Assembly: GCA_001723645.1 (NCBI GenBank)
Contig: MDLC01000015.1
Location: forward strand, 1-57,238
Source: Candidatus Endobugula sertula
GTDB lineage: Bacteria; Pseudomonadota; Gammaproteobacteria; Pseudomonadales; Cellvibrionaceae
Length of the DNA: 57,238 nucleotides
Direction: 5' to 3'
How positions within the stretch are numbered: the first letter of the stretch is position 1; each line of letters begins with the position of its first letter. The notes below the pieces were generated by a model. That model was not told the origin of the DNA and searched no databases. It was given only the letters and a program-made list of their open reading frames with translations. This document shows positions 8,914 through 56,147 of the stretch, piece after piece. A program made the position numbers and the translations under genes.

Positions 8914-10035
<1,122 letters not shown>

Positions 10036-39440: not shown

Positions 39441-40397
39441 CTATACGTTTATGCAATACCATTGAGGTGTTTTAATCGCCTGTAAATATCGCTTCGACTG
39501 CTTATCCCTTTGTAGAAACATGGGTGATTCATTCGTCACTTCAAAACCAAACTGTTTCGGTAAGCTGGTATACATTGACTTTGGCGGCAAGTCATAAATT
39601 TTTTTAATCTTTCGTCCTGTATCAAAGGTATGATAATAAATGATAGAAATTCCCAGTTCATTGCGAATAAAACGAATGGCTGCCGCTAATGATAATTCAG
39701 CCCAAAGCGTTTTATAAGGTTTTAGAATGACCTCTGCATATTCTTTAATATCTCCATATTCACAATGAATGCCATTAATCACATCGCCGGGTTTTGCCGT
39801 GTTTTCCTTGGAGAGATGTTTGTTTACGTGCTCCAGATCTCTATTGACGTCGCGTAACCAATCATTTTGCACCTCCTCAATTAATGCTTCCCCAGTAGAT
39901 AAATCTGCATCGATTCTTACCCATGACAAGGTTTTACGATAGCCCCTTCTAATAGGGTGACCTCTAAACTCAAATGGACCGTAGTTATCTGAAGGCTTTA
40001 ATAAGCGGTGATACTCCTGATTGTGCTTATTATCAAAATTAATTTGCAACACCAAATTCTGCTGATTTCTCGAAGTCTGGTCGTAGTCTCTGTCACCCTC
40101 CCCCCAGCGATCCAATGTTAGAGTAAAGGCCAGCGTGCCTTCATTCCAGTAAAGTGACACATCATCCTTGGTCAACATACCGTTACCACAACGTTTAGTA
40201 ATATTTTTCACTATAGGCTTGGTGGAAAAGCGTTGTAAAGGCGGCTTGTTTAACTCGCGTACTTGTAAGCTTTGCCTTTTGTTGTTTTCCATATACCAAT
40301 TAATCATATCTAAACAATAGCGGTCTTTAAGATAATAAAAGACTCTTCTTTCGTCACCTAAGCAATCGAGTATTTCGTCTAATTCTTTCTGTTTCAT
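39441..40397 (-). CDS. Uncharacterised protein, paralog A of the rtcB-prfH-linked gene
   Basis: 318 aa. Colinear with ORF 41581..42474: [104 protein letters not shown]. Confidence 0.7.
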   Translation of the reverse strand: MKQKELDEILDCLGDERRVFYYLKDRYCLDMINWYMENNKRQSLQVRELNKPPLQRFSTKPIVKNITKRCGNGMLTKDDVSLYWNEGTLAFTLTLDRWGEGDRDYDQTSRNQQNLVLQINFDNKHNQEYHRLLKPSDNYGPFEFRGHPIRRGYRKTLSWVRIDADLSTGEALIEEVQNDWLRDVNRDLEHVNKHLSKENTAKPGDVINGIHCEYGDIKEYAEVILKPYKTLWAELSLAAAIRFIRNELGISIIYYHTFDTGRKIKKIYDLPPKSMYTSLPKQFGFEVTNESPMFLQRDKQSKRYLQAIKTPQWYCINV

Positions 40398-40677: not shown

Positions 40678-41022
40678 ATGACAAAATTTACAAATGGTCG
40701 TCTCATCAGCGACTATCTCGCGCTGAGGCTTTGGGATAAAAAGGTTCAATGGTTTTACAAAGTGCTGACCAAGATAGAATCTCGTTCATTGGCTCCAGAA
40801 ACATCTCTTTGCGAGTCTTCTTACGACATTTTTCAAATTCTTGGTAAAATTGGCGGGCATAAAAAACACCGTAATTTAATGCGAATGATTTCAGAGCAAC
40901 AAAAAGCTATTGCTGAAATAAAAGCGGCGATGATTGCCGATGAGGATTTCGCGGAGAAATTCGCGGCTGAATTATTGGATGAACAAACCTATAAAAAAGT
41001 CATGTCTATCTTTGTACCGTGA
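40678..41022 (+). CDS. Hypothetical protein
   Basis: 114-aa ORF. Its stop overlaps the next ORF's start. No family recognised. Confidence 0.4.
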   Translation: MTKFTNGRLISDYLALRLWDKKVQWFYKVLTKIESRSLAPETSLCESSYDIFQILGKIGGHKKHRNLMRMISEQQKAIAEIKAAMIADEDFAEKFAAELLDEQTYKKVMSIFVP

Positions 41023-41255
41023 GAGGGCTTTTTGCTAACCCCCTTCATAGTGAACCAGAAGAATTAAAGGATCGGAGTTTGCCTGAAAGTCCTTTGGTGG
41101 AGGAGGATGATCCTGCCTTGGCACATTTGACCTATGAGAAAAAGGTCGAGGTGATTAAATCGTTATGGAAGATGATGTCATTGATGGTTGATATGGCGTG
41201 GGGCCTGGATAGTACACAACAATCTTTAACCGAAACCTTCCGTGGAACTGGGTAA
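41019..41255 (+). CDS. Hypothetical acidic protein
   Basis: 78-aa ORF, coupled to the preceding ORF. Confidence 0.35.
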   Translation: MRGLFANPLHSEPEELKDRSLPESPLVEEDDPALAHLTYEKKVEVIKSLWKMMSLMVDMAWGLDSTQQSLTETFRGTG

Positions 41256-41306
41256 GATTCTGGAAGTGTGGTACGACTAAAAGATAGCAAAAGGAGGGTA
41301 AAGAAT

Positions 41307-41390
41307 ATGGCAGAAGTCACAAAAGCATTAATTTATTGCCGTGTATCCAGTAAGAAGCAAAAGCAAGGGGACGGCTTGGAGTCAGGAACA
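41307..41390 (+). pseudogene. Serine recombinase N-terminal remnant
   Basis: A strong RBS aaggaggg precedes MAEVTKALIYCRVSSKKQKQGDGLES, which carries the catalytic-Ser motif Y.RVSS..Q of resolvase/large serine recombinases. Similarity ends after about 28 aa. Confidence 0.5.
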
Positions 41391-41580
41391 CCGCCGCCAG
41401 ACCTTACAAAAAATGAAAGCTTGTTATTGAGGAAAAAGCGGCGAATTCGGTCAAACCGCAGCGAGGTCGTGACGATACTTATATGTTCATGGCACCATAA
41501 GTTGGCCACCTTTTGACACCATAGATTGGCCGTTTTGTATAATATTTGTTCATTTGGTGCGTTTGTCTCCTGATCATACT

Positions 41581-42474
41581 CTAAATTGATAGGCGATACC
41601 ATTGGGTATTTTTAATAGCCTTTAGATATCTCCTAGCTTTTTTGTGTTGTTCTAAAAACCTAGGACTTTGACTGGTTACTTCAAATCCAAATTGCTTTGG
41701 TAACTTTGTGTACATAGATTTGGGCAGCAATCCGTAGATTTTCTTAATTTTTCGCCCTGTGTCAAAAGTATGATAATAGATGGTCGAAATACCCAGCTTG
41801 TTGCGGATAAATTGAATAGCCGCTAGTAGTGAGAGTTCCGCCCATAATCTCTTATAAGGCTCTAATATGACTTCAGCATAGTGTTTAAATTCATTATACT
41901 CACAGTCAATACCATGGATAATATCGCCGGGTTTTACTGTGTTTTTCCCAGCATAGCACCTTGTAACACGCTGCATATCCCAGGTAACTCTACGGATCCA
42001 ATCATTTTGTACCTCTTCAATTAATGCTTCTCCTGTCGTAGGATCAAAATCTATTCTTACCCAAGATAATGTTTTGCGGTTATTTTGCCTAATAGGATGC
42101 CCTCTATATTCAAATGGGCCATAGCTATCATAAGGTTTTAGTAAACTATGGTAGTGTTGGTTATGTTCATTGCCAAAATTGATTTGTAAAACCAGATTTT
42201 GCTGATTTCTAGGTGTTTGATCATAACCTCTTTCGCTGTCACCCCACCGATCAAGTGTTAATGTAAAAGTTAATACATCATTGGGCCAGTAAGATTTAAG
42301 ATTATCTATTGGTAAATAACCATTGCCGCATCGTTTGATAATGTTTTTAACAATCGGTTTTGCGGCAAATAACTCTAAATAATAGCGATCCTTAAAATAA
42401 TGAAAGCCCCTTCTTTCATTACCTAAGCAATACAGTACATCCTCTAAATATTTACTCGTTAAAATCTCTACCAT
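41581..42474 (-). CDS. Uncharacterised protein, third gene of the rtcB-prfH operon (paralog B)
   Basis: 297 aa. The start overlaps the prfH stop by 23 nt. Shares long identical blocks with 39441..40397 but lacks about 25 aa near the N-terminus. Confidence 0.75.
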
Positions 42475-43135
42475 AAAAAGTACGTATAGGTTTACCCCTT
42501 TGCACTTCGTAGTGCTGTGACCATCGTGAACGTTCGAGTGATTTATTTTCTAAATCGTTTTGATTTGCCAGCAATAGTTGCAAACGCTCTAATGCGATTT
42601 GCTTATTTCTATGCTGGGAACGGTCTGATTCAACACGCACTTTTAAACCAGTTGTGCGATGAGTGATACGAACCGCACTATTGGTCTTATTGACATGTTG
42701 ACCACCTGGCCCTTTTGACCGCATAGTCTCCATATCGACTTCCTTCACTAATTCGTTGAACGTCTTCATACTATTACTAGGCATTGATAATGTCGCAATA
42801 CCCACGAACCAGTTGATGCGTTTATGCTTAGGTCGATAAGGGCTTTCACCTTGCCATTTAATAGTTCCTTGCCATTTATGAGCAAACCCATCAACCCCTT
42901 TGCCTTCTAAGCGGATCAATATCGACAAAAATGCATCAGGCTCAATCAATGTCTGATTTCGCAATAACTTATCAAATGCTAAGCTCTCAACGATTTCAGC
43001 AGACAGATTTTCTCTGTATGCTTCATCCAATAGAACTCGACTGAGCTGAGCAATAACCCAGCCGCATTCTTTAGGGCCTTGACCAGCCGTCAGTTGTAGC
43101 CATACAACTGACGATTTTTTATGCTTTGTTTCCAT
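42452..43135 (-). CDS. prfH: Peptide chain release factor H (PrfH)
   Basis: 227 aa. The RF-like GGQ domain reads [20 protein letters not shown] without a codon-recognition domain of RF1/2 size. Lies 2 nt downstream of rtcB, as in known rtcB2-prfH pairs. Confidence 0.88.
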
Positions 43136-43137
43136 AT

Positions 43138-44373
43138 TTATGTTCTCCGTGTTTTATAGGTGAGTAATGGTTTAAAGGTTGCAACGATATCAACCATACC
43201 GGCTTCCGCTAAGTCGCTCACCACCTGACTAATATTTTTGTAGGCTTGTGGGGCCTCTTCATAAAGTAGATCTCTTTGCTTACAAATAACACGGCTACCT
43301 AGTGAAGTTTTCTCTAAGTCTTTTACCTTAAAACGCTTTTCTAAGCGGCCTCGAGCATCACTGCGTTTCCATTTTCGGCCTGCACCATGTGCTAGAGAAA
43401 AACCTCCAAGAGCCAATGCACTTAGCTCATTAACTCTAGGTTTAACAAGATAACTTAAACTACCTCGAGATCCAGGTATCATTACTAAGCCCTTATTCGT
43501 TGGGCTTGCACCTTTACGGTGTATCCAATAACGTCTTTCTGAATCGATGTCTGACTTTGCGGCTGATTTTGCAGAAAGCCCCATTAGCTCAGTCTCAACA
43601 CTTGATAAAGCTTCAACCATATTGTGGGTGACATCGAACAAATAGCGTTGCTTTGTCTTTAACTGCTGACAAAAACGTTCTGCAATAAGTTCTCGATTTG
43701 CTTCAGCCCAACGGATAGCGTAATTGTGACGTTTTTGATACTGTTCATACTGATATTCATCTTGTATGGTTTCTAATGATTTTGAACCTAGGTTATCAAC
43801 ATGATCGCGAAGTATTTTTTGCCCTAAACCTCTAGAGCCGCTATGTACGAGTAAAAACACATGCTTTTTATCAATACCTAATCCATCAAATACATCACTA
43901 TCAATAATCTCATGAATCTGTTGCAATTCAGCAAAGTGATTATCGCCACCTATTGTTCCTAACTTGTGATGCTCTGTTAATGAAAAATCACCTTCAATTA
44001 TTAGACTGCGATCGCCCAACCATTCTTCCCTATTGCCATTCCATAGTTCATCAAGCCCAACAAGTTGTTTTTCCCATTTGTCTAATTTGACCTTTCTGGT
44101 CGGAATATCTAATTGCCATAAACCCATGCCACAACCAATATCACTACCCACCATATGGGGGTAGATACAGTTTTCCGTTACAAAAGCGGCGCCAATGGGT
44201 TGCCCTTTTCCTGGGTGTAGATCTGGCATACCAATACCGATACGCATACCCGGTAATTCCATTGTTTTTTTCAGCTGCGTAATGGCAGCGTCTTCTAACC
44301 AATTTTTGTCAGAGCTAATAATGCTCGTTCGACGATCCTCAGCTGTTTCGATATTTTTAAATAAAGTACTCAT
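43138..44373 (-). CDS. rtcB: RNA 3'-phosphate/5'-OH ligase RtcB (PrfH-associated type)
   Basis: [35 protein letters not shown] and HGAGR motifs. 411 aa. Confidence 0.93.
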
Positions 44374-44725: not shown

Positions 44726-44938
44726 TTAGCTATAAGAAGCTTGGCGCCCGCCTTCCGGTACCTTTGTTCGCATTTTATGGACTTGTGAATAAGCATATCC
44801 CTTAAATTTCGCCCAGCAGCCTTTATGCAAGAATAATTGTCTTTTCTCTCTTACCATTTCGCCAACCGCTGTACTGTATAAAACACAGTTTCGAGGTACA
44901 AATAAAGAATCGATAATATATTGTGTTTTACTACCCAT
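44726..44938 (-). CDS. Small basic hypothetical protein downstream of cca
   Basis: 70-aa ORF. No family recognised. Confidence 0.3.
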   Translation of the reverse strand: MGSKTQYIIDSLFVPRNCVLYSTAVGEMVREKRQLFLHKGCWAKFKGYAYSQVHKMRTKVPEGGRQASYS

Positions 44939-44978: not shown

Positions 44979-46241
44979 CTATTGAGGAGCTATCTTATAC
45001 TGTGCCATATACCGCTTAATACTACCCAAACGTAACCGACGAATTTTCTCTGCTAATTTAAGGCCTTCATAGCCTTCACTTAGTAATGGCTTGATATTGG
45101 TATCTATAGCAACCTGGTTGTATTCGATTAACAATTGAGATTGAGGGTAATCTCTTTGCTCTAATCCTAAACGACCCCTAGCATCCGCTTCACAGGCTTG
45201 CGCAAAGTAACGTACACGTTCTGGTCGCCTGAACCCATCTAGTGCTTCCAATAGCTTTAATACCGATTTGGGACGCATTTCTAATAACTTATGACAACGT
45301 AAATGATGCTCTGACACTAGTTTTGCCAAGGTGCGAAAGTCTTTCGGTACTTTATAACACTCACATACTTTCTCAACTAAAGGTACACCTTTAATTTCAT
45401 GGCGAATATGACGAGGCCACTCTTCTTCAGGGGTAAGACCTTTACCCAAATCATGCATTAGTGCAGCCCAGGTCACGATTAGATCATCAAAACGCTCTCT
45501 GGCAATGTCCACGACCATCATCACATGATCACCCGTATCCACTTCTGGGTGATGCTGTGGGGGTTGCGGAACACCAAATAAACAGTCTAATTCTGGCATT
45601 AAAACCTCCAATGCACCACAGGCACGGAGCACTCGGAAAAACTCACTGGGCCGAGGCTCGGTTAATGCTCGAGACATTTCCTTCCAAACACGTTCCGGTG
45701 TTAATTCAGCAAGCTCGCCATTGTTAACCAAGTGCTTCATTAATTCTAATGTATTGGGATGCACTTGAAAATCTAACGTGGCATAACGTGCAGCAAAACG
45801 GGCTACTCTTAATACTCTCAATGGGTCATCAGAGAATGATTCTGAAACATGTCGTAAGACTTTATTATTTAAATCGGCTCTACCGTTAAACGGATCAACA
45901 TATTTACCTTCTAATGTCAGCGCAATGGCATTAATCGTAAGGTCTCTCCGAGATAGATCTTCTTCAAGTGTAACCTCGGGGCTAAAATCACAAACAAAGC
46001 CAGTGTGCCCCTTACCTGATTTTCTTTCAGTACGAGCGAGAGCATATTCATCCTTAGTTTCTGGGTGTAAAAAACAGGGAAAGTCGTTACCTATTTGTTG
46101 ATAGCCTTGCTCTATAAGCATTTCTGGAGTCGCACCGATGACTACCCAGTCATGATCTGCAACTGGGCGACCTAATAGCTTATCGCGTACCGCTCCACCG
46201 ACTAAATAAGCCTGAACACCAGTATTCTGTATATTTTCCAT
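44979..46241 (-). CDS. cca: Multifunctional CCA-adding enzyme (class II nucleotidyltransferase with HD domain)
   Basis: YLVGGAVRDKLLGRP..D.DWVV, ARTERK and RDLTINA, plus a C-terminal HD-domain region (LMHDLGK). 420 aa, like E. coli Cca. Confidence 0.92.
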   Translation of the reverse strand: MENIQNTGVQAYLVGGAVRDKLLGRPVADHDWVVIGATPEMLIEQGYQQIGNDFPCFLHPETKDEYALARTERKSGKGHTGFVCDFSPEVTLEEDLSRRDLTINAIALTLEGKYVDPFNGRADLNNKVLRHVSESFSDDPLRVLRVARFAARYATLDFQVHPNTLELMKHLVNNGELAELTPERVWKEMSRALTEPRPSEFFRVLRACGALEVLMPELDCLFGVPQPPQHHPEVDTGDHVMMVVDIARERFDDLIVTWAALMHDLGKGLTPEEEWPRHIRHEIKGVPLVEKVCECYKVPKDFRTLAKLVSEHHLRCHKLLEMRPKSVLKLLEALDGFRRPERVRYFAQACEADARGRLGLEQRDYPQSQLLIEYNQVAIDTNIKPLLSEGYEGLKLAEKIRRLRLGSIKRYMAQYKIAPQ

Positions 46242-46987
46242 TATATTGTTACGACTAAGTTCTCATTAAAGTTTGGGTTATAGCTATCTGGATAACCTCT
46301 TGGATTACAAATAATACGGCAGTTACCTATGGAGTAATCATAACTTTGGTGCAAATGACCGTGAATCCAAAGATTTGGACTGTACTCCAAAATAAAATCA
46401 TCTAAATCAGATACATAGGCAGCGCTCGTCATATCGCTTGCCTTTTTCTCTGAAAGAGACATTCTACTAGGGCCGTGGTGACTTATAACAACATTTTTAT
46501 ACCCTTTATAAGTGGTTAGTTCACGTTCAAGCCAATGAAGTGAATGTTTATGGATAATAGCCGTATCTATCGACCTTAATTTTGAGTACTTGGGAGAAAC
46601 TCGAATCTTCTTGTAGTCATTCATTATCTGTTGACAGTGAAAACCTGCAATCCGAGGATCGCCAAAAAGCTCAAAATCTGTCCATAATGTACAGCCAAAG
46701 AAATTAATATTACCTAAAGTAACCAACTCTTTTTCTAAAATATGAATGTTTGTGTCTTTAGCCATCGCTTTCATTTCATGAATATATTTCGGATACGCTT
46801 TACCGTAAAATTCATGGTTGCCTAGTACATATAAGACGGGTTTATCAGGTATATTTTTTAATGCCCACTCTATTCCTTTTCCTTTTACATGGATATCACC
46901 AGCAAGAATGACAATGTCACACTCCGGCAAGGTTAGTTCCAAATTAGCAAACTCTATATGTAGATCACTTAATATTAATAACTTCAC
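46241..46987 (-). CDS. Calcineurin-like metallophosphoesterase
   Basis: LSDLHIE, AGDI, GNHEFY, HHGP and GHLH motifs. The stop overlaps the cca start (TAATG). Confidence 0.85.
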   Translation of the reverse strand: MKLLILSDLHIEFANLELTLPECDIVILAGDIHVKGKGIEWALKNIPDKPVLYVLGNHEFYGKAYPKYIHEMKAMAKDTNIHILEKELVTLGNINFFGCTLWTDFELFGDPRIAGFHCQQIMNDYKKIRVSPKYSKLRSIDTAIIHKHSLHWLERELTTYKGYKNVVISHHGPSRMSLSEKKASDMTSAAYVSDLDDFILEYSPNLWIHGHLHQSYDYSIGNCRIICNPRGYPDSYNPNFNENLVVTI

Positions 46988-47023: not shown

Positions 47024-47048
47024 AAAACCGCCAGCAAGCTGACGGTTA
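47024..47048 (-). terminator. Probable terminator after the SPFH gene
   Basis: aaccgccag-caag-ctgacggtt hairpin (8 of 9 bp), followed on the minus strand by a short TTTT run. Confidence 0.5.
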
Positions 47049-47052
47049 TCGG

Positions 47053-48207
47053 TTAAGCCTTTTTAGGGGCTAGAGTTACAAGCTCGTTAAGCACACCGCC
47101 TAAACCACCGTAAACAGAAATCTTATCGATTTGACCGGTAATTTTTTCGAGTGCTTCTAACTCTTTCAAGCGAAGCAATACTGGATTATTTTCCATCATC
47201 TTAGCAGTATTATGTAACGAACGCATAGCTTGAGTTTCCTCGCGGCGTTTGATCAAGTTAGCTTCAGCTTCTTTTTGTGCTTCAACCACTTGATTCAAGA
47301 TTTGCTTCATATCACCCGGCAAGATAATGTCTTTAACACCAACATTGACCAGCTCAATACCATAGTTAGCTAATTTTTCGCGAGTCGCTTGGGTAATCAC
47401 TGTGTTAAGTGTATCTTTATCTTCCAACAAAGTATCCAGTGATTGTGTACCCACCGCTTCACGCAGGCTTAACTGCAGCTCGCGATAGATAAAACCAGCA
47501 TAATCATTCACTTTTAAAGCGACGATTTCTGGATCTTTCACTTTATAGCTAGCGCTTAAGTTAATACGCAGGCTCACACGATCCTTTGTTAAAATTTTTT
47601 GACCACTTACCTCAACAGCTTGTAAGCGTAGATCTAATAGCTTAACACCAACAGAACGATTGTATTTCCAGAAGCCATAATTTCCAGGCTTTAAAATACT
47701 CTCGAGCTTACCATTAACGTTTAGAAGGCCGACGTGTTCATCTGGCACTTCTGCGTAAAGAATGGCATTAACTACTTCTCGGCTTTGACCTACTGTTAGG
47801 CCTCGACCTAGTAGATTAATCAACGACTTATCGATTTGGTAGTTCTCACTGATATCAATAATATCAACACGAACATCCTCTACATTTTTCCAAACGGTTA
47901 AAACAGAACCTGGTGCGAGCACACTAGCCAGCTTGTTATCTCGATACAGCAAACCGACTTCAGAGTCTTTAAGGTTAAACTGTTCAAGATAAGGTGCTAA
48001 TTTATCTGCATATTGAGTCATTAGGAACTGTGCTTTACGGTTCTTAAATAACACGTCGGTAATGTCATGAACGTCTACTGCCACTCGGCCTTGTGGGGTC
48101 GATACTCGGTGTCGACCTGGACCTAGTACACGTTTAAATTGATCACGCACATACAATAGAGCACGTTGATGATCAGCAATATCAATTGTCTTCCAGAAAA
48201 TCATCAT
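47053..48207 (-). CDS. SPFH/band-7 domain protein (slipin-like)
   Basis: 384 aa. A central SPFH-type region and a C-terminal coiled-coil QKEAEANLIKRREETQA. Confidence 0.85.
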   Translation of the reverse strand: MMIFWKTIDIADHQRALLYVRDQFKRVLGPGRHRVSTPQGRVAVDVHDITDVLFKNRKAQFLMTQYADKLAPYLEQFNLKDSEVGLLYRDNKLASVLAPGSVLTVWKNVEDVRVDIIDISENYQIDKSLINLLGRGLTVGQSREVVNAILYAEVPDEHVGLLNVNGKLESILKPGNYGFWKYNRSVGVKLLDLRLQAVEVSGQKILTKDRVSLRINLSASYKVKDPEIVALKVNDYAGFIYRELQLSLREAVGTQSLDTLLEDKDTLNTVITQATREKLANYGIELVNVGVKDIILPGDMKQILNQVVEAQKEAEANLIKRREETQAMRSLHNTAKMMENNPVLLRLKELEALEKITGQIDKISVYGGLGGVLNELVTLAPKKA

Positions 48208-48541: not shown

Positions 48542-48618
48542 TGGTGTTTTTGGCAGGATTCGAACCTGCTACCCATCGATTATGAATCGATTGCTCTACC
48601 CGTATGAGCTACAAAAAC
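48542..48618 (-). tRNA. tRNA with CAT anticodon (Met, or Ile if lysidine-modified), CCA encoded
   Basis: Hand fold: GTTTTTG TA GCTC ATACGGGTA GAGC A ATCGA TTCATAA TCGAT GGGTA GCAGG TTCGAAT CCTGC CAAAAAC A CCA. Confidence 0.85.
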
Positions 48619-48984
48619 CTATGCGTTGGAGGCATAGTTGTTTAGCGGGCTAGCGAATCGGTACACAGGACATTAAAAATGGCTGTGCCAGCCTGGCATA
48701 CGGAACCAGAGACACTGTTTCGTTAACTTGCGCATAAACATCGGTATGGAGTTAGACGCCAAAAAAGCGCCAAACTCCAAATACTTATCATCGAATATCG
48801 GAAACAACACTAAGGTGTTTGCCTTTTTCCTTATCGTACTCGGCAATTTCCATTTCTCCGTCAATTGGCGCTATTGTTACCAAATGATCAATTCGTGAAT
48901 ACATCTCTCCATGGTAGGCTTTTAGCTCGCCTTTTCCATTTTCATATCCTCATTGCTTATGAACTAAAGCCAATACAGTTTGGT

Positions 48985-49536
48985 TTAGCCACTCTTCCAT
49001 TTTCGTTGACTAGAAAATTGTTTAGTCAGATAGTCCATTTGATCGGCAATAATATGCCGATTAGTTAAATACAAATATTCAAAAGGATTCGGCGTAAACG
49101 GAACCGCTAATAAAAGCATATTTGCTTGTTCCGGTGTACGATTGCCTTTTGCATGATTGCAGCGCTTGCAGGCGGCCACGACATTTGTCCAACTATCGGC
49201 TCCACCTTGAGCACGCGGTACCACATGGTCACGGGTTAGTTCCTGTGCAAAAAATATTTGGCCGCAATATAAGCACACATAATTATCTCGACGAAATAAC
49301 ATAGCATTGCTAAATGAACGGACCTTCATACTTTTTCCGTGACCTTTAGTCGCAATCACTGGAGAAATATCAAGCATAGAACGTTCGCCATCGCGGTTGT
49401 AACCGCCCCGCATTAAGGCACCTTGTTCACCCATTTCCCACAGCACAAGTTTTTTGCTGTAAAGGGTTGTAGCAGCCTCCACTAATAGCCAATGCATCGG
49501 CATACCAGAGGGATTTAGGCGTAGTACTTTTTTCAT
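48985..49536 (-). CDS. HNH endonuclease
   Basis: CLYCG...TRDHVVPRAQGG..SW.NVVAACKRCNHAKGNRTP is a classic HNH-Cys4 motif. 183 aa. Confidence 0.88.
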   Translation of the reverse strand: MKKVLRLNPSGMPMHWLLVEAATTLYSKKLVLWEMGEQGALMRGGYNRDGERSMLDISPVIATKGHGKSMKVRSFSNAMLFRRDNYVCLYCGQIFFAQELTRDHVVPRAQGGADSWTNVVAACKRCNHAKGNRTPEQANMLLLAVPFTPNPFEYLYLTNRHIIADQMDYLTKQFSSQRKWKSG

Positions 49537-49578
49537 TACCTTGCGCCAAAAAATAAATCCATATGTGAATACACCAGC

Positions 49579-49875
49579 CTAATAGTATTTAATAAAGTTC
49601 ATACCATCAGCCGAGCGATAACCATTTGTTTCTAACAAATGGATCATCGCTTGTCGTTTTTGTAATTGCCTTTCTGTAACAACTACATAAAGCGGCATCA
49701 ATTGTTGATGGAGTGCCCATGTCAACAATTGGTGCCCATTTTCGCGACCAACTAAATAGTGATCCACATATAGCTGGGTTACACTATTTTTAAGCAATTG
49801 CTTTTTTGCTTTTCTTGCATCGTCACAGAAAACATCTGCGAAACGGTTTTGATTTTTGCTAACAGATAAACGCAT
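49579..49875 (-). CDS. Hypothetical protein inside the tRNA array
   Basis: 98-aa ORF, 33 nt downstream of tRNA-His. No family recognised. Confidence 0.45.
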   Translation of the reverse strand: MRLSVSKNQNRFADVFCDDARKAKKQLLKNSVTQLYVDHYLVGRENGHQLLTWALHQQLMPLYVVVTERQLQKRQAMIHLLETNGYRSADGMNFIKYY

Positions 49876-49908
49876 AATCCCTCCTGTGAGCTAGTGAGAA
49901 TATTTAGG

Positions 49909-49980
49909 GGTGACCGATGGGACTCGAACCCATATATACTTGAGCCACATTCAAGCGCATTACCGATCTGCCACGGCCAC
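49909..49980 (-). tRNA. tRNA-His (GTG), no encoded CCA (CCT) and no G-1
   Basis: Hand fold: GTGGCCG TG GCAG ATCGGTA ATGC G CTTGA ATGTGGC TCAAG TATAT ATGGG TTCGAGT CCCAT CGGTCAC C. Followed by CCT, and position -1 is T. Confidence 0.75.
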
Positions 49981-50011
49981 ACCTAAATATTCTGGGTAAT
50001 AAGAAATAATT

Positions 50012-50086
50012 TGGTCCGCCCGGTAGGATTTGAACCCACACCTGTCGGCTTAAAAGGCCGATGCGCTACCATTACGCCACGAACGG
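50012..50086 (-). tRNA. tRNA-Lys (TTT), CCA encoded
   Basis: Hand fold: CCGTTCG TG GCGT AATGGTA GCGC A TCGGC CTTTTAA GCCGA CAGGT GTGGG TTCAAAT CCTAC CGGGCGG A CCA. Confidence 0.85.
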
Positions 50087-50091
50087 AAAAT

Positions 50092-50170
50092 TGGCACCTG
50101 ACACAGGACTCGAACCTGCATCTCCCCGCTTCGTAGGCGGGTGCTCTAAATCCAATTGAGCTAATCAGGC
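50092..50170 (-). tRNA. tRNA-Arg (ACG), CCA encoded
   Basis: Hand fold: GCCTGAT TA GCTC AATTGGATTTA GAGC A CCCGC CTACGAA GCGGG GAGAT GCAGG TTCGAGT CCTGT GTCAGGT G CCA. Confidence 0.85.
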
Positions 50171-50176
50171 AAAATT

Positions 50177-50250
50177 TGGAGCCCAATACAGGACTCGAAC
50201 CTGTCTCTACTGCTTACAAGGCAGTTGCACAGCCGCTATGCCAATCGGGC
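50177..50250 (-). tRNA. tRNA-Thr (TGT), CCA encoded
   Basis: Hand fold: GCCCGAT TG GCAT AGCGGCT GTGC A ACTGC CTTGTAA GCAGT AGAG ACAGG TTCGAGT CCTGT ATTGGGC T CCA. Confidence 0.85.
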
Positions 50251-50290
50251 AAGTTAAGAAATTTTGTGAAATAAAAGACTGGAATCCTTT

Positions 50291-51487
50291 CTAGCCTTTT
50301 ACGTTGACGATTTGACGAAGCGTATGAACAACGTCAACAAGATCAGTTTGGTTATCCATAACATCATCAATTGGCTTATACGCCATGGGAATCTCATCGA
50401 TTACACCTTTGTCTTTACGGCATTCAATCCCCTCTGTTGCAGATACAAGATCACTTACAGAATAGGTTTTTGCAGCCGCAGTTCGACTTAGGCGACGTCC
50501 AGCGCCGTGAGAGCAAGAACAGAACGATTCTGATTCACCTTTACCACGAACAATAAAACTTTTATCGCCCATAGACCCAGGAATAATACCCAAATCATCT
50601 TTTCTTGCGCGGATAGCGCCTTTACGTGTAACCCATACGTTTTTACCAAAATGGTTTTCCTTTTCCACATAGTTATGATGACAATTGATGGCTTCTTGAG
50701 TGACCGCAAACGCTGGAAGATGTTTACGTAGCTCCATCATCACTGCATTCATCATATGTGTACGATTCAATGCAGCATAATCTTGCCCCCAAGATACTGC
50801 TTCGATGTAATCATCGTAATATTCTGATCCTTCAGATAGATAAGCCAAATCTTTATCGGGCAAATGGATCATCCATTTTTCCATTTCACGTTTCGCGATC
50901 TCGATAAAATGCATTCCAATTTTATTACCGATACCACGGCTTCCTGAATGCAGCATAATCCATACGTCTTGATTTTCATCCAAACACAACTCGATAAAGT
51001 GATTCCCTGAACCTAGCGTACCTAACTGCTTTGCAAAGGCATCATACTTAATACGTTTACTTATTTGAGGATGCTTCTCGAAGATAGTACTTAAACGCAT
51101 TGAAATATCATGGCCACCTGCAATTTTAGGGTCACGATGTTTTCCGCCTGCCCCCAAAGGCACAACAGATTCAATACGACTGCGAATAGCTTTCAAATTA
51201 TCAGGCAGATCTTTTGCCTTTAGCGATAGACGCACGGCATTCATACCACAACCAATATCCACGCCTACTGCAGCAGGGATAATCGCTTTATCGGTCGCGA
51301 TTACTGAACCCACAGTCGCTCCTTTACCCAAATGAACATCTGGCATTGCTGCTACATGTTTATAGACAAAGGGTAAATTCGCTACTCGGCTTAATTGTGC
51401 CTGTGTGTTGTAATCAATATCATCTGTCCAGATTTTTACAGGCACACGCTGATCTTTATGCGTTGCCAATACTTTTTTAATGGTCAT
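50291..51487 (-). CDS. rtcB: RNA ligase RtcB embedded in the tRNA array
   Basis: MPDVHLGKG, GVDIGCGM, GSGNHFIELC, HSGSRGIGN, HNY and HGAGR motifs. 398 aa. Lies 30 nt downstream of an oversized tRNA-like gene and 40 nt upstream of tRNA-Thr. Confidence 0.95.
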   Translation of the reverse strand: MTIKKVLATHKDQRVPVKIWTDDIDYNTQAQLSRVANLPFVYKHVAAMPDVHLGKGATVGSVIATDKAIIPAAVGVDIGCGMNAVRLSLKAKDLPDNLKAIRSRIESVVPLGAGGKHRDPKIAGGHDISMRLSTIFEKHPQISKRIKYDAFAKQLGTLGSGNHFIELCLDENQDVWIMLHSGSRGIGNKIGMHFIEIAKREMEKWMIHLPDKDLAYLSEGSEYYDDYIEAVSWGQDYAALNRTHMMNAVMMELRKHLPAFAVTQEAINCHHNYVEKENHFGKNVWVTRKGAIRARKDDLGIIPGSMGDKSFIVRGKGESESFCSCSHGAGRRLSRTAAAKTYSVSDLVSATEGIECRKDKGVIDEIPMAYKPIDDVMDNQTDLVDVVHTLRQIVNVKG

Positions 51488-51517
51488 AATTGCCTCCTTT
51501 AGTTATTTTATAATGAC

Positions 51518-51658
51518 TGGTTGGAGGTATAGGAATAACCTAAGCGCGTCCTGCGCTTAGCCTTTCAGATGCAAAGCAGTTCAAAATGCTCCCGGCATTT
51601 TGTCGAACCCATCTCGCCGGGGCAAAAACCCGGTGCTCAGCCACTAAGCCAACCTCCA
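51518..51658 (-). tRNA. Oversized (141 nt) tRNA-like gene with a 74-nt T-loop. The 7-nt anticodon loop reads TTTTTGC (UUU). CCA encoded.
   Basis: Hand fold: TGGAGGT TG GCT TAGTGGCTG AGC A CCGGG TTTTTGC CCCGG CGAG ATGGG [TTCGA CAAAATGC-CGGGA-GCATTTTG AACTGCTTTGCATCTGAAAGG CTAAGCGC-AGGAC-GCGCTTAG GTTATT] CCTAT ACCTCCA A CCA. Acceptor pairs 7/7 and T-stem 5/5. Confidence 0.6.
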
Positions 51659-51668
51659 GTTAAGTAAT

Positions 51669-51818
51669 TGGAGCGATGTATGGGAATCGAACCCATTTCC
51701 TCTGCTTGGACTGCTTTGCAGGAGCAAAAGCAGGACATCATGTAGTGGTGGTTGCGAAGCAATTGTGTATAGGGATATACACAACAACGCAGGTACCTCA
51801 CCATTCGGTTAACATCGC
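51669..51818 (-). tRNA. Oversized (150 nt) tRNA-like gene with an ~80-90 nt insertion in the anticodon arm. Anticodon undetermined. CCA encoded.
   Basis: 5' part: GCGATGT TA ACC GAATGGTGA GGT A CCTGC. 3' part: GCAGA GGAA ATGGG TTCGATT CCCAT ACATCGC T CCA. Acceptor pairs 7/7. The insert holds the hairpins TTGTGTATA-TCCC-TATACACAA and CTGCTTTTGC-TCCT-GCAAAGCAG. Confidence 0.55.
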
Positions 51819-51824
51819 ATAAAT

Positions 51825-51902
51825 TGGTCTGGGTGGTAGGGTTTGAACCTACGACCTTTGGGTTCCAAACCCAACACGCTAACCAAACTGCGCTACACCC
51901 AG
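51825..51902 (-). tRNA. tRNA-Pro (TGG), CCA encoded
   Basis: Hand fold: CTGGGTG TA GCGC AGTTTGGTTA GCGT G TTGGG TTTGGAA CCCAA AGGTC GTAGG TTCAAAC CCTAC CACCCAG A CCA. Confidence 0.9.
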
Positions 51903-51910
51903 AATAAATT

Positions 51911-52052
51911 TGGCGGTTCATACCACTTCCCATAAATAGAGAGGGAACCGGTGATCTCTCGGCTTATTCACATGAATGTAATGTATGCCGATTTTGCAGG
52001 AGCAAAAATCGGTGACAACCGAGCGCATTAAACCTGACTATGCTAATGAACC
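51911..52052 (-). tRNA. Oversized (142 nt) tRNA-Asp(GTC)-like gene with a 49-nt insertion after the anticodon loop and an expanded T-loop. CCA encoded.
   Basis: Hand fold: GGTTCAT TA GCAT AGTCAGGTTTA ATGC G CTCGG TTGTCAC [CGATTTTTGC-TCCT-GCAAAATCGG CATACATTACATTCATGTGAATAAG] CCGAG AGATC ACCGG [TTCCC TCTCTATTTAT GGGAA] GTGGT ATGAACC G CCA. Acceptor pairs 7/7. Confidence 0.6.
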
Positions 52053-52057
52053 TTAAT

Positions 52058-52133
52058 TGGTGGAGACCGTGGGAATCGAACCCACCACACAGTGCTTGCA
52101 AAGCATCGTCGCCCCCTTGATACATGGGCCCCC
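52058..52133 (-). tRNA. tRNA-Ala (TGC) with G3:U70, a poorly paired D-arm, CCA encoded
   Basis: Hand fold: GGGGGCC CA TGTATCAAGGGGGCGAC GATGC TTTGCAA GCACT GTGTG GTGGG TTCGATT CCCAC GGTCTCC A CCA. The G3-T70 wobble is present. No convincing D-stem. Confidence 0.7.
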
Positions 52134-52138
52134 AATTT

Positions 52139-52293
52139 TGGAGTGCGAGGCTGGGTGAAAGAAGTGTTGTTAGCAAAGCACTGCTTTGTACTTCTTGAAC
52201 GCCCAAAACTTATAATTTTTGGCCGGCCCGCTTGCGGCAAACCAGCGTATACGGAGGTTGCAGCTCCGCGCATCGTCTCTCTGCCACTCGCAC
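52139..52293 (-). tRNA. Oversized (155 nt) tRNA-Cys(GCA)-like gene with an 87-nt T-loop. U73, CCA encoded.
   Basis: Hand fold: GTGCGAG TG GCAG AGAGACG ATGC G CGGAG CTGCAAC CTCCG TATAC GCTGG [87 nt, including AAGAAGT..ACTTCTT and AAAGC-AGT-GCTTT hairpins] CCAGC CTCGCAC T CCA. Acceptor, anticodon and T stems all pair perfectly. Confidence 0.6.
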
Positions 52294-52310
52294 AAAATAG
52301 TTATTCAGAT

Positions 52311-52384
52311 TGGCAACAGCGTCAGGATTCGAACCTGGAATACCGGAGTCAAAGTCCAGTGTGTTACCGTTACACCACGCTGCT
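52311..52384 (-). tRNA. tRNA-Gln (TTG), G73, CCA encoded
   Basis: Hand fold: AGCAGCG TG GTGT AACGGTA ACAC A CTGGA CTTTGAC TCCGG TATT CCAGG TTCGAAT CCTGA CGCTGTT G CCA. One T-stem mismatch. Confidence 0.8.
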
Positions 52385-52392
52385 ATATTTTT

Positions 52393-52481
52393 TGGTCGTG
52401 AGGAGCGGGTTTGAACTCTCGCAGCACTCTTGTTACTGTGCGGATTAGCAATCCGCTGCCTTACCACTCGGCCACATTTCC
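52393..52481 (-). tRNA. tRNA-Ser(GCT)-like, probably defective (acceptor and T stems do not pair)
   Basis: Type II D-arm GCCGAGTGGTAAGGC, anticodon arm GCGGA TTGCTAA TCCGC, and a long variable arm. The 5' strand GGAAATG pairs at only 3 of 7 positions with CCTCACG, and the T-stem GAGAG/CCGCT is poor. Confidence 0.5.
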
Positions 52482-52487
52482 AATAAT

Positions 52488-52629
52488 TGGTTGCGGTGGC
52501 TGGAATAACCAAAGTACTTTCTGTACTTTGCTCTGCGAGTGCTTCGCTGCTCAAAATGCTCCAGGCATTTTGTCGAACCAACAAGTTCGGGCATATGAAA
52601 CCCGCGAGTAGCCATAGCTCAACACCGCT
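52488..52629 (-). tRNA. Oversized (142 nt) initiator-like tRNA (CAT) with the same 74-nt T-loop architecture as 51518..51658. CCA encoded.
   Basis: Hand fold: AGCGGTG TT GAGC TATGGCT A CTC G CGGGT TTCATAT GCCCG AACTT GTTGG [TTCGA CAAAATGC-CTGGA-GCATTTTG AGCAGCGAAGCACTCGCAGAG CAAAGTAC-AGAAA-GTACTTTG GTTATT] CCAGC CACCGCA A CCA. There is a 1:72 A-A mismatch, and the 3' end CCGCAACCA resembles remembered E. coli tRNA-fMet. Confidence 0.6.
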
Positions 52630-52640
52630 TCAAATAGTAG

Positions 52641-52715
52641 TAGGCCAAGGCGGATTCGAACCGCTCCTTATCCCGCTTATGAGGCGGGTGCATTCACCGA
52701 TTATGCTATTGGCCT
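52641..52715 (-). tRNA. tRNA with CAT anticodon (Met/Ile2 type), no CCA encoded
   Basis: Hand fold: AGGCCAA TA GCAT AATCGGTGA ATGC A CCCGC CTCATAA GCGGG ATAAGG AGCGG TTCGAAT CCGCC TTGGCCT A. Followed by CTA. Confidence 0.75.
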
Positions 52716-52725
52716 AATTTAAAAT

Positions 52726-52809
52726 TGGTGTAGGCAGATGGAGTTGAACCACCAAAGCTTTCGCGACCGGGTTACAACCGGCTAGAGTCACCACGTCTCT
52801 TCTGTGTAC
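52726..52809 (-). tRNA. tRNA-Tyr (GTA), type II, with two central acceptor mismatches. CCA encoded.
   Basis: Hand fold: GTACACA GA AGAG ACGTGGTGA CTCT A GCCGG TTGTAAC CCGGT CGCGAAAGCTTT GGTGG TTCAACT CCATC TGCCTAC A CCA. An alternative 5' strand GCAGGTA (to 52813) pairs 6/7 but leaves a 6-nt connector. Confidence 0.65.
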
Positions 52810-52818
52810 CTGCATAAT

Positions 52819-52895
52819 TGGCTCCGGCAGTTGGGATCGAACCAACGAACTCCTGATTAACAGTCAGGCGCATTACCACTCTGCTTCACACCGGA
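52819..52895 (-). tRNA. tRNA-Asn (GTT), CCA encoded
   Basis: Hand fold: TCCGGTG TGAAGCAGAGTGGTAATGC G CCTGA CTGTTAA TCAGG AGTTC GTTGG TTCGATC CCAAC TGCCGGA G CCA. The D-stem is shifted (GCA/TGC). Confidence 0.8.
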
Positions 52896-52902
52896 ATAAA
52901 AT

Positions 52903-52979
52903 TGGTACAGTGAGCTGGACTCGAACCAGCACTCTCCTGATCTTCAATCAAGCGCTCTACCAATTGGAGCTATCACTGC
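52903..52979 (-). tRNA. tRNA-Phe (GAA), CCA encoded
   Basis: Hand fold: GCAGTGA TA GCTC CAATTGGTA GAGC G CTTGA TTGAAGA TCAGG AGAGT GCTGG TTCGAGT CCAGC TCACTGT A CCA. Confidence 0.9.
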
Positions 52980-52987: not shown

Positions 52988-53173
52988 TTGGCACGCGGTG
53001 AAAGAAAAGTATCAAACCTCATCGAGGAGTGGAACGACAGCAATAAAATTGATCCTGAACGGCTAGAAGACCAGCTCACACCAGAGCGTTATAGGGCGCT
53101 ATTTGATACCCTCGTAGATTGGAATGACTATCTTGACAACCATGCACCGGATATCAAGGAGTTGTTGCTATGA
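52988..53173 (+). CDS. Small hypothetical protein upstream of mobC (start uncertain, TTG)
   Basis: The part of track ORF 52910..53173 that lies outside tRNA-Phe. Its stop overlaps the mobC-like start (ATGA). Confidence 0.3.
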   Translation: MARGERKVSNLIEEWNDSNKIDPERLEDQLTPERYRALFDTLVDWNDYLDNHAPDIKELLL

Positions 53174-53598: not shown

Positions 53599-53600
53599 AG

Positions 53601-54734: not shown

Positions 54735-54822
54735 TTAATTGGTTAAATTTGACTCAAACAGCAAAAAAGTTGTATGCTTAAACATATATGTGTTTATACG
54801 CTTATTTATAGAGGTAACTATC

Positions 54823-55459: not shown

Positions 55460-55475
55460 ATAACAAAGCCATTTA

Positions 55476-56027: not shown

Positions 56028-56147
56028 TATACGACCTCTGATAACCTCTACGATTAAATCATGATGATATTGATGCCAAAAAAGTGGCTAGTTACACCTT
56101 AGCTGAGAGTAACAAAATAAGTGAACAAAGACGACGATAAGAGGAAC

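Follow-up and report, generated by a model that had tools for sequence, protein, structure and literature searches.

A metallophosphoesterase gene overlapping an island-borne cca gene in 'Candidatus Endobugula sertula' and its possible role in RNA 3'-end repair

In 'Candidatus Endobugula sertula', a bryozoan symbiont, the gene for a predicted metallophosphoesterase (MPE) overlaps the gene for a CCA-adding enzyme (Cca) inside a region rich in tRNA and RNA-repair genes. Comparison with related genomes indicates that cca is a fixed cargo of a horizontally acquired tRNA-array/RNA-repair island, and that the MPE gene was added later, from a family carried by phages, in a variable slot between the hairpin that follows the SPFH gene and cca. 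MPE might clean RNA 3' ends for Cca, which the gene neighborhoods of its family make plausible, if somewhat short of probable.

Organization of the locus

Both genes lie on the minus strand of the window, that is, the whole 57,238-nucleotide stretch analyzed (contig MDLC01000015.1), at the positions given in a preliminary description of this DNA. The MPE gene (46987..46241) has a GTG start, encodes 248 amino acids, and is the first gene past the SPFH hairpin, while cca (46241..44979) encodes a multifunctional CCA-adding/repair enzyme of 420 amino acids with a nucleotidyltransferase head, an RNA-binding domain, and an HD domain. Direct reading of the minus strand (...ACA ATA TAA TGG AAA...) confirmed the TAATG overlap (46239..46243) that had been described, the MPE stop codon TAA (46243-46241) and the cca start codon ATG (46241-46239) having one base in common. 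A 1-nt stop/start overlap is frequent in operons and, taken alone, statistically unremarkable. MPE is predicted to be translationally coupled to cca.

Downstream of cca and on the same strand lies a 70-amino-acid remnant of the RNA-repair nucleotidyltransferase RlaP (PF10127; 44726..44938), which has suffered an internal deletion and a truncation and matches the central part of the intact 300-amino-acid RlaP with 88 to 97% identity in six related islands (L003 to L006, L010, and L012). It is followed, still on the minus strand, by the genes for an RtcB2 RNA ligase of the PrfH-associated type (43138..44373; NCBIfam TIGR03073, 438 bits versus a cutoff of 272) and for PrfH, peptide chain release factor H (42452..43135; NCBIfam TIGR03072, 209 bits versus a cutoff of 167). 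As the two genes are only 2 nt apart and both products exceed their family cutoffs, they constitute an RtcB2-PrfH module. The end of prfH is overlapped by the gene for an uncharacterized 297-amino-acid protein (41581..42474, minus strand), which matched no family in searches that included Pfam and NCBIfam and which has a paralogue at 39441-40397.

Upstream of the MPE gene, an SPFH/Band-7 protein identified with Pfam (47053..48207, minus strand) is a conserved island gene that precedes the variable slot. Past its stop codon, folding revealed a terminator-like hairpin (47027..47046, minus strand), followed by UUUUACCCUUU, and this hairpin separates SPFH from the MPE-cca unit. A consensus terminator scan of the window did not flag the SPFH hairpin, the fold of the 81-nt intergenic region was not significant (z = -1.1), and a promoter scan found promoter-like sites no more often than in shuffled sequence. 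In the related islands, inspection by eye showed that a GC-rich hairpin with a T-run precedes cca in L004, and that L012 has a weaker hairpin at this place.

The upstream part of the island (48542..52979, minus strand), annotated with ARAGORN, Rfam, Pfam, and NCBIfam, holds 12 tRNA genes in three groups together with genes for an HNH endonuclease (48985-49536), a possible cRec-like open reading frame (49579-49875), and RtcB1 (50291-51487). MPE and cca are thus flanked by rtcB2 and prfH (42452-44373) on one side and by SPFH, HNH, rtcB1, and the tRNA genes on the other, which bears out the earlier placement of the pair between an rtcB-prfH operon and a tRNA array. The same description had the region flanked by mobile-element remnants; this held for the right side, where MobC-like, relaxase, RHH-PIN pair, and resolvase genes occupy 53170-56937, but not for the left side, where the small open reading frames at 40678-41516 matched no mobile-element family. 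A candidate recombinase remnant among the latter (41268-41516) was rejected, having neither a Pfam match nor any likeness to the resolvase at 56314.

The island in related genomes and its variable slot

The gene order rtcB1, (rtcA), tRNAs, HNH, SPFH, slot, cca, RlaP was found in six other genomes (L003 to L006, L010, and L012), and the genomes carrying the syntenic island are labeled as two families. In L003 to L006 and L010, the next genes are rtcB2, prfH, and, 3' of prfH, a homologue of the 297-amino-acid protein, whereas L012 has a second RlaP, that homologue, and an rtcB1-like gene instead of rtcB2-prfH. The SPFH proteins of the six islands are 71 to 78% identical to that of the window. 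L004 was the only relative in which the flanks were read, and its chromosomal flanks differ from those of the window. Such recurrence of the gene order in six genomes besides Endobugula, and at another chromosomal site in L004, agrees with the earlier remark that cca does not sit in a typical core-genome context, and its tightest linkage is to the repair genes RlaP and rtcB2-prfH.

The slot between SPFH and cca is empty in L004 and L012. In L003 it contains genes for a reverse transcriptase, a SWIM protein, and a 1058-amino-acid protein on the opposite strand, and in L006 a gene for a HEAT-like protein, indicating that the slot takes unrelated cargo. An HD phosphohydrolase and a nucleotidyltransferase, chemically comparable to MPE as slot cargo, occupy it in L005, L010, and a further locus, L011, and an EF-Tu paralogue is also among the slot contents in relatives. 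Co-oriented slot genes sit tight on cca, the window and L005 having a TAATG junction and L010 a 6-nt gap; in L005 this junction joins the nucleotidyltransferase gene to cca, provided that position 9995 is the cca start, another in-frame ATG being located 6 nt downstream. MPE itself was missing from all six fully syntenic islands, and its only other trace upstream of cca was a 98-amino-acid C-terminal remnant, 25 nt from cca, in L011. The MPE-cca pairing is therefore not conserved, being confined to Endobugula and, as a remnant, to L011.

The metallophosphoesterase and its family

MPE matched Pfam Metallophos (PF00149) with an E value of 2.8e-14 (54.4 bits versus a gathering threshold of 21.5), and its GTG start agrees with the N termini of 37 homologues (MK[IL]..LSDLH). 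The motifs DxH, GD, GNHE, H, GH, and GHxH are all intact, which places the protein in the metallophosphoesterase superfamily, and the metal-binding residues D8, H10, D31, N57, H58, H170/H171, H209, H211, and H213 were invariant in alignments of 28 and 38 sequences. We predict that MPE is an intact binuclear metallophosphoesterase of a phage and mobile-element family (phrog_1649).

The top matches of the predicted fold were PptH, aq_1956, TT1561, MPPED2, and Mre11, and among the fold matches listed none was described as Pnkp or lambda phosphatase. By sequence, a phmmer search against the PDB gave no match at an E value of ≤1, and a profile search returned only PptH (E = 0.017, 46 residues). MPE is predicted to have its fold, cap elements included, in common with Mycobacterium tuberculosis PptH (Rv2795c; PDB 6unc), a phosphopantetheinyl hydrolase; however, the two are only 16 to 17% identical, which does not amount to orthology at the sequence level, their genomic contexts are wholly different, and nothing found points to carrier proteins as the MPE substrate. 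Neither sequence membership nor a top-ranking fold match assigned MPE to the CthPnkp/lambda-phosphatase branch. The PADLOC candidate defense gene PDC-S10 gave a weak match (E = 1.2e-17), its best stretch covering residues 1 to 105 of 248.

The family is very large, with at least 7971 matches among the 8000 candidates scored, and at least eight of its sub-lineages, with less than 50% identity between groups, have members next to tRNA arrays or repair genes. One locus (L090) combines seven tRNAs with HNH, RtcB, RtcA, MPE, and an AAA_33 kinase; the loci with the closest MPE homologue (L224/L225, 65%) carry an integrase, an AAA_33 kinase, a Thg1-like protein, and MPE; and in L070 MPE is followed by an AAA_33 kinase. 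AAA_33 kinases occur near MPE relatives in eight viral loci, and in six viral contigs AAA_33 and HAD_PNKP genes adjoin MPE, together with Rnl1 in five of the six and with HNH nearby. Dolichocephalovirinae jumbo phages have a tRNA array, MPE, and peptide deformylase, and four further viral contigs have 4 to 22 tRNAs at most 5 kb from MPE. Within the same distance, RNA-repair genes or at least two tRNAs were present at 14 of 80 viral and 3 of 80 metagenomic loci. A ClpP query as background for the viral neighborhoods gave only 4 loci, too few for a comparison.

Most family members are not close to RNA-repair genes. Other close homologues adjoin transposases, helicases, BrxR, or CBASS-like genes, and the contexts encountered comprise Cap15/DAC/T6SS, Integrase_2 with a RecD2-like helicase, DDE or rve transposases, UvrD helicases, and BrxR. 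When the immediate neighbors were clustered over about 170 loci, no family appeared in more than five.

These contexts raise the question of whether MPE is unrelated cargo that landed at a hot spot for insertion 5' of cca, in which case the TAATG overlap would reflect compaction and only cca would belong to the island. We consider this explanation doubtful on balance but a serious one, as the contents of the slot vary and include clearly unrelated insertions, the six syntenic islands lack MPE, most of its relatives reside in contexts resembling defense islands or transposons, and the family as a whole has no conserved partner gene. The PDC-S10 match and the rank of PptH as best structural match point the same way, as does the GC content of the MPE gene, the lowest of the island genes (0.353, versus 0.431 for cca), although its GC3 is similar to that of the neighbors and the low GC is not decisive for a separate origin. 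On the other hand, four kinds of RNA-repair machinery stand beside MPE in at least eight distant sub-lineages, for which chance insertion is hard to credit, an independent MPE remnant occupies the same place 5' of cca in L011, and MPE is co-oriented with cca and overlaps it. Candidate functions for MPE as unrelated cargo include those of a second-messenger phosphodiesterase, a defense gene, or a PptH-like carrier-protein hydrolase.

The Cca enzyme, its lineage, and the tRNA array

The preliminary description of a full-length Cca with both a nucleotidyltransferase head and an HD domain was correct: the Pfam domains PolyA_pol, PolyA_pol_RNAbd, and HD were all found, the NCBIfam equivalog NF008137 (PRK10885) was matched with 609.2 bits (cutoff, 451; residues 10 to 414 on model positions 2 to 406), and the translation contains the motifs LVGGAVRD, DHDWVV, HHPEVDTGDH, and MHDLGK. 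The gene is thus expected to encode an intact multifunctional CCA-adding/repair enzyme of the E. coli type (class II, with an HD phosphohydrolase domain), having the same three-domain architecture with intact head and HD motifs. Unlike the E. coli gene, the Endobugula copy lies in a mobile RNA-repair island, in relatives directly followed by RlaP, and belongs to a clade separate from the ordinary Cca of its host family. The HD domain of E. coli-type Cca is said, in work by Yakunin et al. of 2004, to have 2',3'-cyclic phosphodiesterase and phosphatase activity, and with such reported healing activities the step that we propose for MPE would not strictly depend on a second enzyme.

The Ccas of the six related islands are 74 to 81% identical and form a clade of their own, apart from those of Cellvibrio, Marinimicrobium, and other Cellvibrionaceae (51 to 54% identity), so that the phylogenetic comparison suggested beforehand sets the island copy outside ordinary Cellvibrionaceae Cca. 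This bears on the possibility that cca is simply the housekeeping, and only, copy of the organism, with a neighborhood of no special meaning. The protein is indeed a full equivalog of E. coli Cca, and searches seeded with Cellvibrionaceae housekeeping Cca (one five-sequence profile and one single protein) brought up no second Endobugula Cca among the best 120 matches; but none of these matches fell below 61% identity with the query and Teredinibacter was missing as well, which makes the absence of Endobugula uninformative. An exact 8-mer peptide scan of genome contigs with Cca found no genome with two loci among those returned, the E. sertula assembly itself not being one of them. Given the separate clade, the conservation of the neighborhood as an RNA-repair island in two labeled families, and the other site in L004, we regard this explanation as improbable; a sole copy would, moreover, be compatible with an island origin.

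The array of the window consists of the 12 tRNAs called by ARAGORN and one weak Rfam match over 4.4 kb, with protein genes in between. As in the tRNA array units and L-arrays of mobile elements, the tRNAs are clustered, with an embedded HNH gene and rtcB nearby; rtcB and translation genes occur near L-arrays (PMC8421152), and array units of M. avium carry a conserved HNH gene (PMC12803027). The array nevertheless falls outside the definition of a tRNA array unit, which demands 20 or more tRNA genes at a density of at least 2 per kb (PMC4758250), as it has 12 tRNAs in three groups, interleaved with repair enzymes.

It is very improbable that the island Cca serves mainly for maturation, adding CCA to array tRNAs lacking it, with MPE irrelevant: although the CCA-less members proposed earlier as substrates do exist (tRNA-His at 49907 and one tRNA-Met at 52640, the CCA-less tRNA-His being kept in L004 and L012), CCA is encoded in 10 of the 12 tRNAs of the window and in 14/16, 6/7, and 6/8 of those of L004, L006, and L012, respectively, L005 and L010 keep cca with a single tRNA in their 10-kb flanks, and cca is most tightly linked to RlaP and rtcB2-prfH.

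Proposed function

In the model that we favor, MPE-cca would be the promoter-proximal end of an operon comprising MPE, cca, the RlaP remnant, rtcB2, prfH, and the gene for the 297-amino-acid protein. MPE would hydrolyze RNA 3'-end blocks, such as a 2',3'-cyclic phosphate, a 3'-phosphate, or another phosphodiester-linked adduct, or might alternatively trim a damaged terminal nucleotide; Cca would then extend the resulting 3'-OH and restore the CCA end on tRNAs that ribotoxins have damaged. RlaP would formerly have acted on this 3'-OH as well. Such an acceptor-end pathway would parallel the ligation of endonucleolytic breaks by RtcB and the rescue of cleaved ribosomes by RtcB2-PrfH.

As MPE relatives recur, in independent lineages, beside tRNA arrays and genes for RNA end repair, a role in 3'-end healing is reasonable. 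This much of the healing module proposed in the preliminary description stands, while the lack of conservation of the pairing and the PptH-like fold count against it. Removal of 2',3'-cyclic or 3'-phosphate ends by MPE would also run counter to RtcB, which requires such ends.

Known systems offer partial parallels. Phage RNA-repair systems include calcineurin-like and HD phosphatases, RlaP, and CCA-adding enzymes, as stated in PMC7824862 (section 3.4.9). In the healing modules of CthPnkp and T4 Pnkp, a kinase is combined with a 3'-phosphatase/2',3'-cyclic phosphodiesterase, and the CthPnkp phosphatase is, according to PMC2190708, likewise a binuclear metallophosphoesterase, one able to open 2',3'-cyclic phosphates. 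Relatives of MPE similarly adjoin AAA_33 polynucleotide-kinase-like genes, but no kinase was found beside MPE or elsewhere in the Endobugula window. As the viral cassettes already have a separate HAD_PNKP phosphatase, MPE probably does something additional there. RtcB2-PrfH and RlaP operons are seen as horizontally spread counter-ribotoxin systems (PMC9304027; PMC6514570; PMC12776372), and Endobugula has adjacent rtcB2 and prfH genes, with RlaP 3' of cca in its relatives. The accessible portions of the literature on these modules do not describe Cca, the SPFH protein, a tRNA array, or MPE as partners.

A bolder version of the model, which we consider unlikely, is that the PptH-like MPE family represents an unrecognized RNA-end "deblocking" enzyme and that MPE and Cca constitute a dedicated tRNA acceptor-end repair pathway stripping groups that toxins install on the 3' CCA. 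Candidate groups would be the cyclic phosphate left after CCA clipping, pyrophosphate of the toxSAS/CapRel type, or extra nucleotides of the MenT type. Cca would rebuild the end, a complement to the repair of anticodon loops by RtcB and of ribosomes by RtcB2-PrfH in one "translation rescue" island.

Significance

That mobile elements carry RNA-repair operons and tRNA arrays is established, but the enzymes in charge of damaged tRNA 3' ends are poorly mapped. The locus singles out an uncharacterized and very large phosphoesterase family that recurs beside RtcB/RtcA, Rnl1/Pnk, Thg1-like, and Cca genes, and the conserved composite island unites spare tRNAs, two RtcB ligases, PrfH, RlaP, and a dedicated Cca. 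Should MPE not act on RNA, this copy of cca would still be island cargo and MPE a passenger of an insertion hot spot. If MPE does act on RNA ends, it would represent a new class of enzymes for RNA end-healing and would help to explain how mobile elements, and perhaps a defensive symbiont, resist toxins that target tRNAs.

Gene pair and island layout

'Candidatus Endobugula sertula' is a symbiont of Bugula neritina and the producer of bryostatin. On the minus strand, a metallophosphoesterase gene (MPE; 46987..46241, 248 aa), whose GTG start is the point at which the N termini of homologues align, is followed by cca (46241..44979, minus strand, 420 aa), encoding a CCA-adding/repair enzyme. The junction reads ACA ATA TAA TGG AAA, one base being common to the TAA stop and the ATG start, and direct reading of the sequence confirmed the TAATG overlap recorded in the preliminary description; one-nucleotide overlaps are frequent in operons, and this one alone is unremarkable. 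MPE matched Pfam Metallophos and retained all metal-binding motifs of the superfamily. The nucleotidyltransferase head and HD domain previously ascribed to Cca were both recovered, Pfam delineating a PolyA_pol head, an RNA-binding region and an HD domain, and the protein scoring 609 bits (cutoff, 451) with the NCBIfam equivalog for the E. coli-type multifunctional CCA addition/repair protein.

Positions 1-38,987 hold ordinary chromosomal genes (polA, pstCAB-phoU, yaaA, 5-formyl-THF cyclo-ligase, 6S RNA and yrfG), and all genes from approximately 39.4 kb to 52,979 lie on the minus strand. In transcription order, tRNA genes (52979-51825) come first and are followed by the RNA ligase gene rtcB1, four tRNAs, a 98-aa open reading frame (ORF) with a subthreshold cRec match, an HNH endonuclease gene, a tRNA, an SPFH-domain gene, MPE, cca, a 70-aa ORF, the second ligase gene rtcB2, prfH and a gene for an uncharacterised 297-aa protein. 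This order places the pair between rtcB-prfH and the tRNA array, as had been stated. Mobile-element remnants had been noted on both sides; they are present on the right, but none could be verified on the left flank of the island. The right flank (53170-56937) encodes a MobC/NikA-like protein, a MobA/TraI-type relaxase, an RHH-PIN toxin-antitoxin pair, a CxxCxxCC protein and a serine resolvase, has a higher GC content (0.47) and may be a separate mobilisable element adjoining the tRNA array. The 6S RNA (36971-37145, minus strand; Rfam, 87 bits) adjoins the 5-formyl-THF cyclo-ligase gene and serves as a marker for the conserved, chromosomal side of the boundary with the island.

cca as island cargo

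Scanning one genome per species with the Cca protein yielded 52 loci, a sample skewed by the exact peptide patterns on which the scan relied. The eight closest Ccas (74 to 81% identity) came from Cellvibrionaceae, Spongiibacteraceae or "uncultured Pseudomonadales" MAGs, and six of them (loci L003-L006, L010 and L012) share the order rtcB1, (rtcA), tRNAs, HNH, tRNA, SPFH, a variable slot, cca and RlaP, the last being an RNA-repair nucleotidyltransferase gene. All of these except L012 then carry (RlaP2), rtcB2, prfH and a homologue of the 297-aa protein; in L012, cca-RlaP is followed by a second RlaP, the homologue of the uncharacterised protein and an rtcB1-like gene. In L004, a complete chromosome, the flanks are a cysE-like gene and a LysR gene on one side and a phage-type lysozyme gene on the other, unlike those in the window, showing that the cluster occupies a different chromosomal site at least there. 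The claim that cca lies outside a typical core-genome context was thus substantiated.

The ordinary Ccas of Cellvibrionaceae (Cellvibrio, Marinimicrobium and two MAGs) are only 51 to 54% identical to the window Cca, no closer to it than those of enterobacteria or Aeromonas. The phylogenetic comparison proposed in the preliminary description, a neighbour-joining tree without support values that inherits the sampling bias of the scan, grouped the island Ccas in one clade, distant from that of the Cellvibrionaceae housekeeping Ccas. Its nearest neighbours were non-island Ccas of Spongiibacteraceae, Azotimanducaceae and an unclassified Pseudomonadales MAG, whose genes occupy ordinary contexts. From these sequence comparisons, we conclude that cca is cargo of a horizontally spread RNA-repair island.

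An intact 300-aa RlaP lies directly 3' of cca in all six syntenic islands. The 70-aa ORF of the window (44726-44938, minus strand) is an RlaP (PF10127) remnant with an internal deletion and a truncation; the gene has apparently decayed in the symbiont's island. The 297-aa protein (41581-42474, minus strand) and a paralogue (39441-40397, minus strand) are 62% identical to each other and had no match in Pfam, NCBIfam, PADLOC or PHROGs. The former gene shares 23 nt with the end of prfH, and a homologue of it lies after prfH in L003-L006 and L010 and after RlaP2 in L012; the protein is a conserved, uncharacterised partner of RtcB2-PrfH. The 98-aa ORF (49579-49875, minus strand), between tRNA-His and HNH, gave a below-cutoff match (20.6 bits; cutoff, 27; E = 7e-4) to the "cyclic-phosphate processing receiver domain" family of Pfam, cREC_REC, which its L004 homologue (7009-7413) also matched (E = 1.3e-3), and a cyclic-phosphate-processing protein may already be encoded in the island, next to RtcB1.

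A variable slot upstream of cca

MPE was found in none of the six syntenic islands and is not a conserved island component. L004 and L012 have no gene in the slot between SPFH and cca; there, visual inspection showed a GC-rich hairpin and T-run immediately before cca in L004 and a weaker hairpin in L012. In L005 and L010, it holds genes for an HD protein and a nucleotidyltransferase tightly coupled to cca, again by TAATG in L005. In the related locus L011, HD and nucleotidyltransferase genes are accompanied by an EF-Tu paralogue (3435-4688; 417 aa, with all three EF-Tu domains) and by a 98-aa C-terminal MPE fragment (54% identical) separated from cca by 25 nt. L006 carries a HEAT-like 559-aa protein, and L003 a 7-kb insertion on the opposite strand (2550-9620) with reverse transcriptase-like, SWIM zinc-finger and 1058-aa proteins, which, with genes assigned by reading translations, looks like a defence-type cassette. 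In the window, a hairpin at 47027-47046, comparable to those of L004 and L012 but not called by a simple terminator scan, lies 3' of SPFH and 5' of MPE, which probably makes MPE the first gene of the cca-rtcB2-prfH unit.

The MPE family and its neighbourhoods

The family is very large, with at least 7971 matches among 8000 candidates scored, and its best homologues are 54 to 65% identical across the full 248 aa. MPE matched the phage family phrog_1649 (E = 4.6e-51), while a match to the PADLOC candidate PDC-S10 covered its N-terminal half only. By tblastn, it was detected in 193 phage genomes, including jumbo phages of Caulobacter, Brevundimonas, Vibrio and Escherichia. None of the fold matches listed is described as a lambda-phosphatase/CthPnkp-type RNA-healing enzyme, and MPE should be described simply as a putative phosphodiesterase; the structure it matches best is PptH, the phosphopantetheinyl hydrolase of M. 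tuberculosis.

Neighbourhoods were sampled at 80 loci each from metagenomes and viruses and at several exact-match loci. No neighbour family was conserved across them; most copies lack RNA-related neighbours and lie near transposases, helicases, BrxR or CBASS-like genes. A tRNA or RNA-repair setting was found at 14 of 80 viral and 3 of 80 metagenomic loci, many metagenomic contigs being short, an enrichment to be read as qualitative. In L090, seven tRNAs, HNH, RtcB, RtcA, MPE and an AAA_33 kinase occur together, with an integrase nearby. The closest homologue of the window MPE (65%), in Tara Oceans data (L224, 4730-6708; also L225), is the last gene of a three-gene unit after an AAA_33 kinase and a Thg1-like 3'-5' polymerase, adjoining a phage-type integrase; the kinase-Thg1 pairing is a published RNA-repair association (PMC2904730). 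In L070, an AAA_33 kinase follows MPE. On six viral contigs, AAA_33 and HAD_PNKP adjoin MPE, joined by Rnl1 in five, a set that is, by its predicted domains, a T4-type tRNA repair cassette. Dolichocephalovirinae jumbo phages carry MPE and peptide deformylase between two tRNA arrays, and four further viral contigs have 4 to 22 tRNAs at most 5 kb from MPE. Since the positive loci represent at least eight sub-lineages with less than 50% identity between them, the association arose or persisted many times, with different partners.

In the metagenomic contig L079 (780-2306), an MPE homologue is immediately preceded by a gene for an SPFH-domain protein with 31% identity to that of the island, echoing the order of the window. 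Homologues of the island HNH (48985-49536, minus strand) in L090 (1410-2000) and viral L146, L160-L162, L168 and L180 recur in or beside tRNA arrays and RNA-repair cassettes of unrelated elements.

A possible role at RNA 3' ends

The best-supported reading, to which we give nearly even credence, is that MPE makes RNA 3' ends ready for Cca to add nucleotides. MPE would clear a phosphate, whether cyclic or linear, or a different phosphodiester-linked block, and Cca would then extend the freed end, as RlaP formerly would have. The sequence data establish the gene identities, the coupling of MPE with cca, the conservation of the island and the repeated occurrence of the MPE family beside RNA repair, whereas the substrate of MPE and its joint action with Cca are inferred. 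In the same island, RtcB1 would ligate cleaved RNAs, RtcB2-PrfH would rescue and repair cleaved ribosomes, and the array would supply spare tRNAs. CCA-less array members had been proposed as substrates, and two exist, tRNA-His (49907) and one tRNA-Met (52640), but 10 of the 12 array tRNAs encode CCA; supplying it could account for no more than a small part of the linkage. The tRNA-His gene ends in CACCCC, with no encoded CCA, in the window (49907-49980, minus strand), L004 (7011-7084) and L012 (7030-7102). A weak tRNA match (52406-52481, minus strand; Rfam, 30.5 bits; cutoff, 29), not called by ARAGORN, may be a degenerate array member.

The main rival, that MPE is an unrelated passenger, is plausible if rather doubtful. 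The earlier healing interpretation holds insofar as cca is island cargo and the MPE family recurs beside RNA repair, but the pairing is not conserved and the slot accepts unrelated cargo. The HD domain of E. coli-type Cca reportedly has 2',3'-cyclic phosphodiesterase and phosphatase activities of its own (Yakunin et al., 2004), which counts against a role for MPE, and dephosphorylation by MPE would work counter to RtcB.

Several elements of the locus have published precedents. A list of jumbo-phage RNA-repair components already includes calcineurin-like and HD phosphatases, RlaP, RtcB and CCA-adding enzymes (PMC7824862), PrfH-RtcB has been described as a repair unit that spreads horizontally and varies in its additional genes (PMC6514570), and RtcB2-PrfH has been described in the rescue and repair of cleaved ribosomes (PMC9304027). 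Next to long tRNA arrays, rtcB occurs as a co-regulated neighbour (PMC8421152), and an HNH gene is conserved within mycobacterial (Mycobacterium avium) array units (PMC12803027). The survey of Burroughs and Aravind (2016) aside, our literature search found no description of the composite island, of Cca as a fixed RlaP-RtcB2-PrfH partner or of the PptH-like MPE family as an RNA-repair associate. The main value of these findings lies in a conserved tRNA/RtcB/Cca/RlaP/PrfH island and in the MPE family, as yet uncharacterised, whose candidacy as an RNA-end enzyme can be tested.
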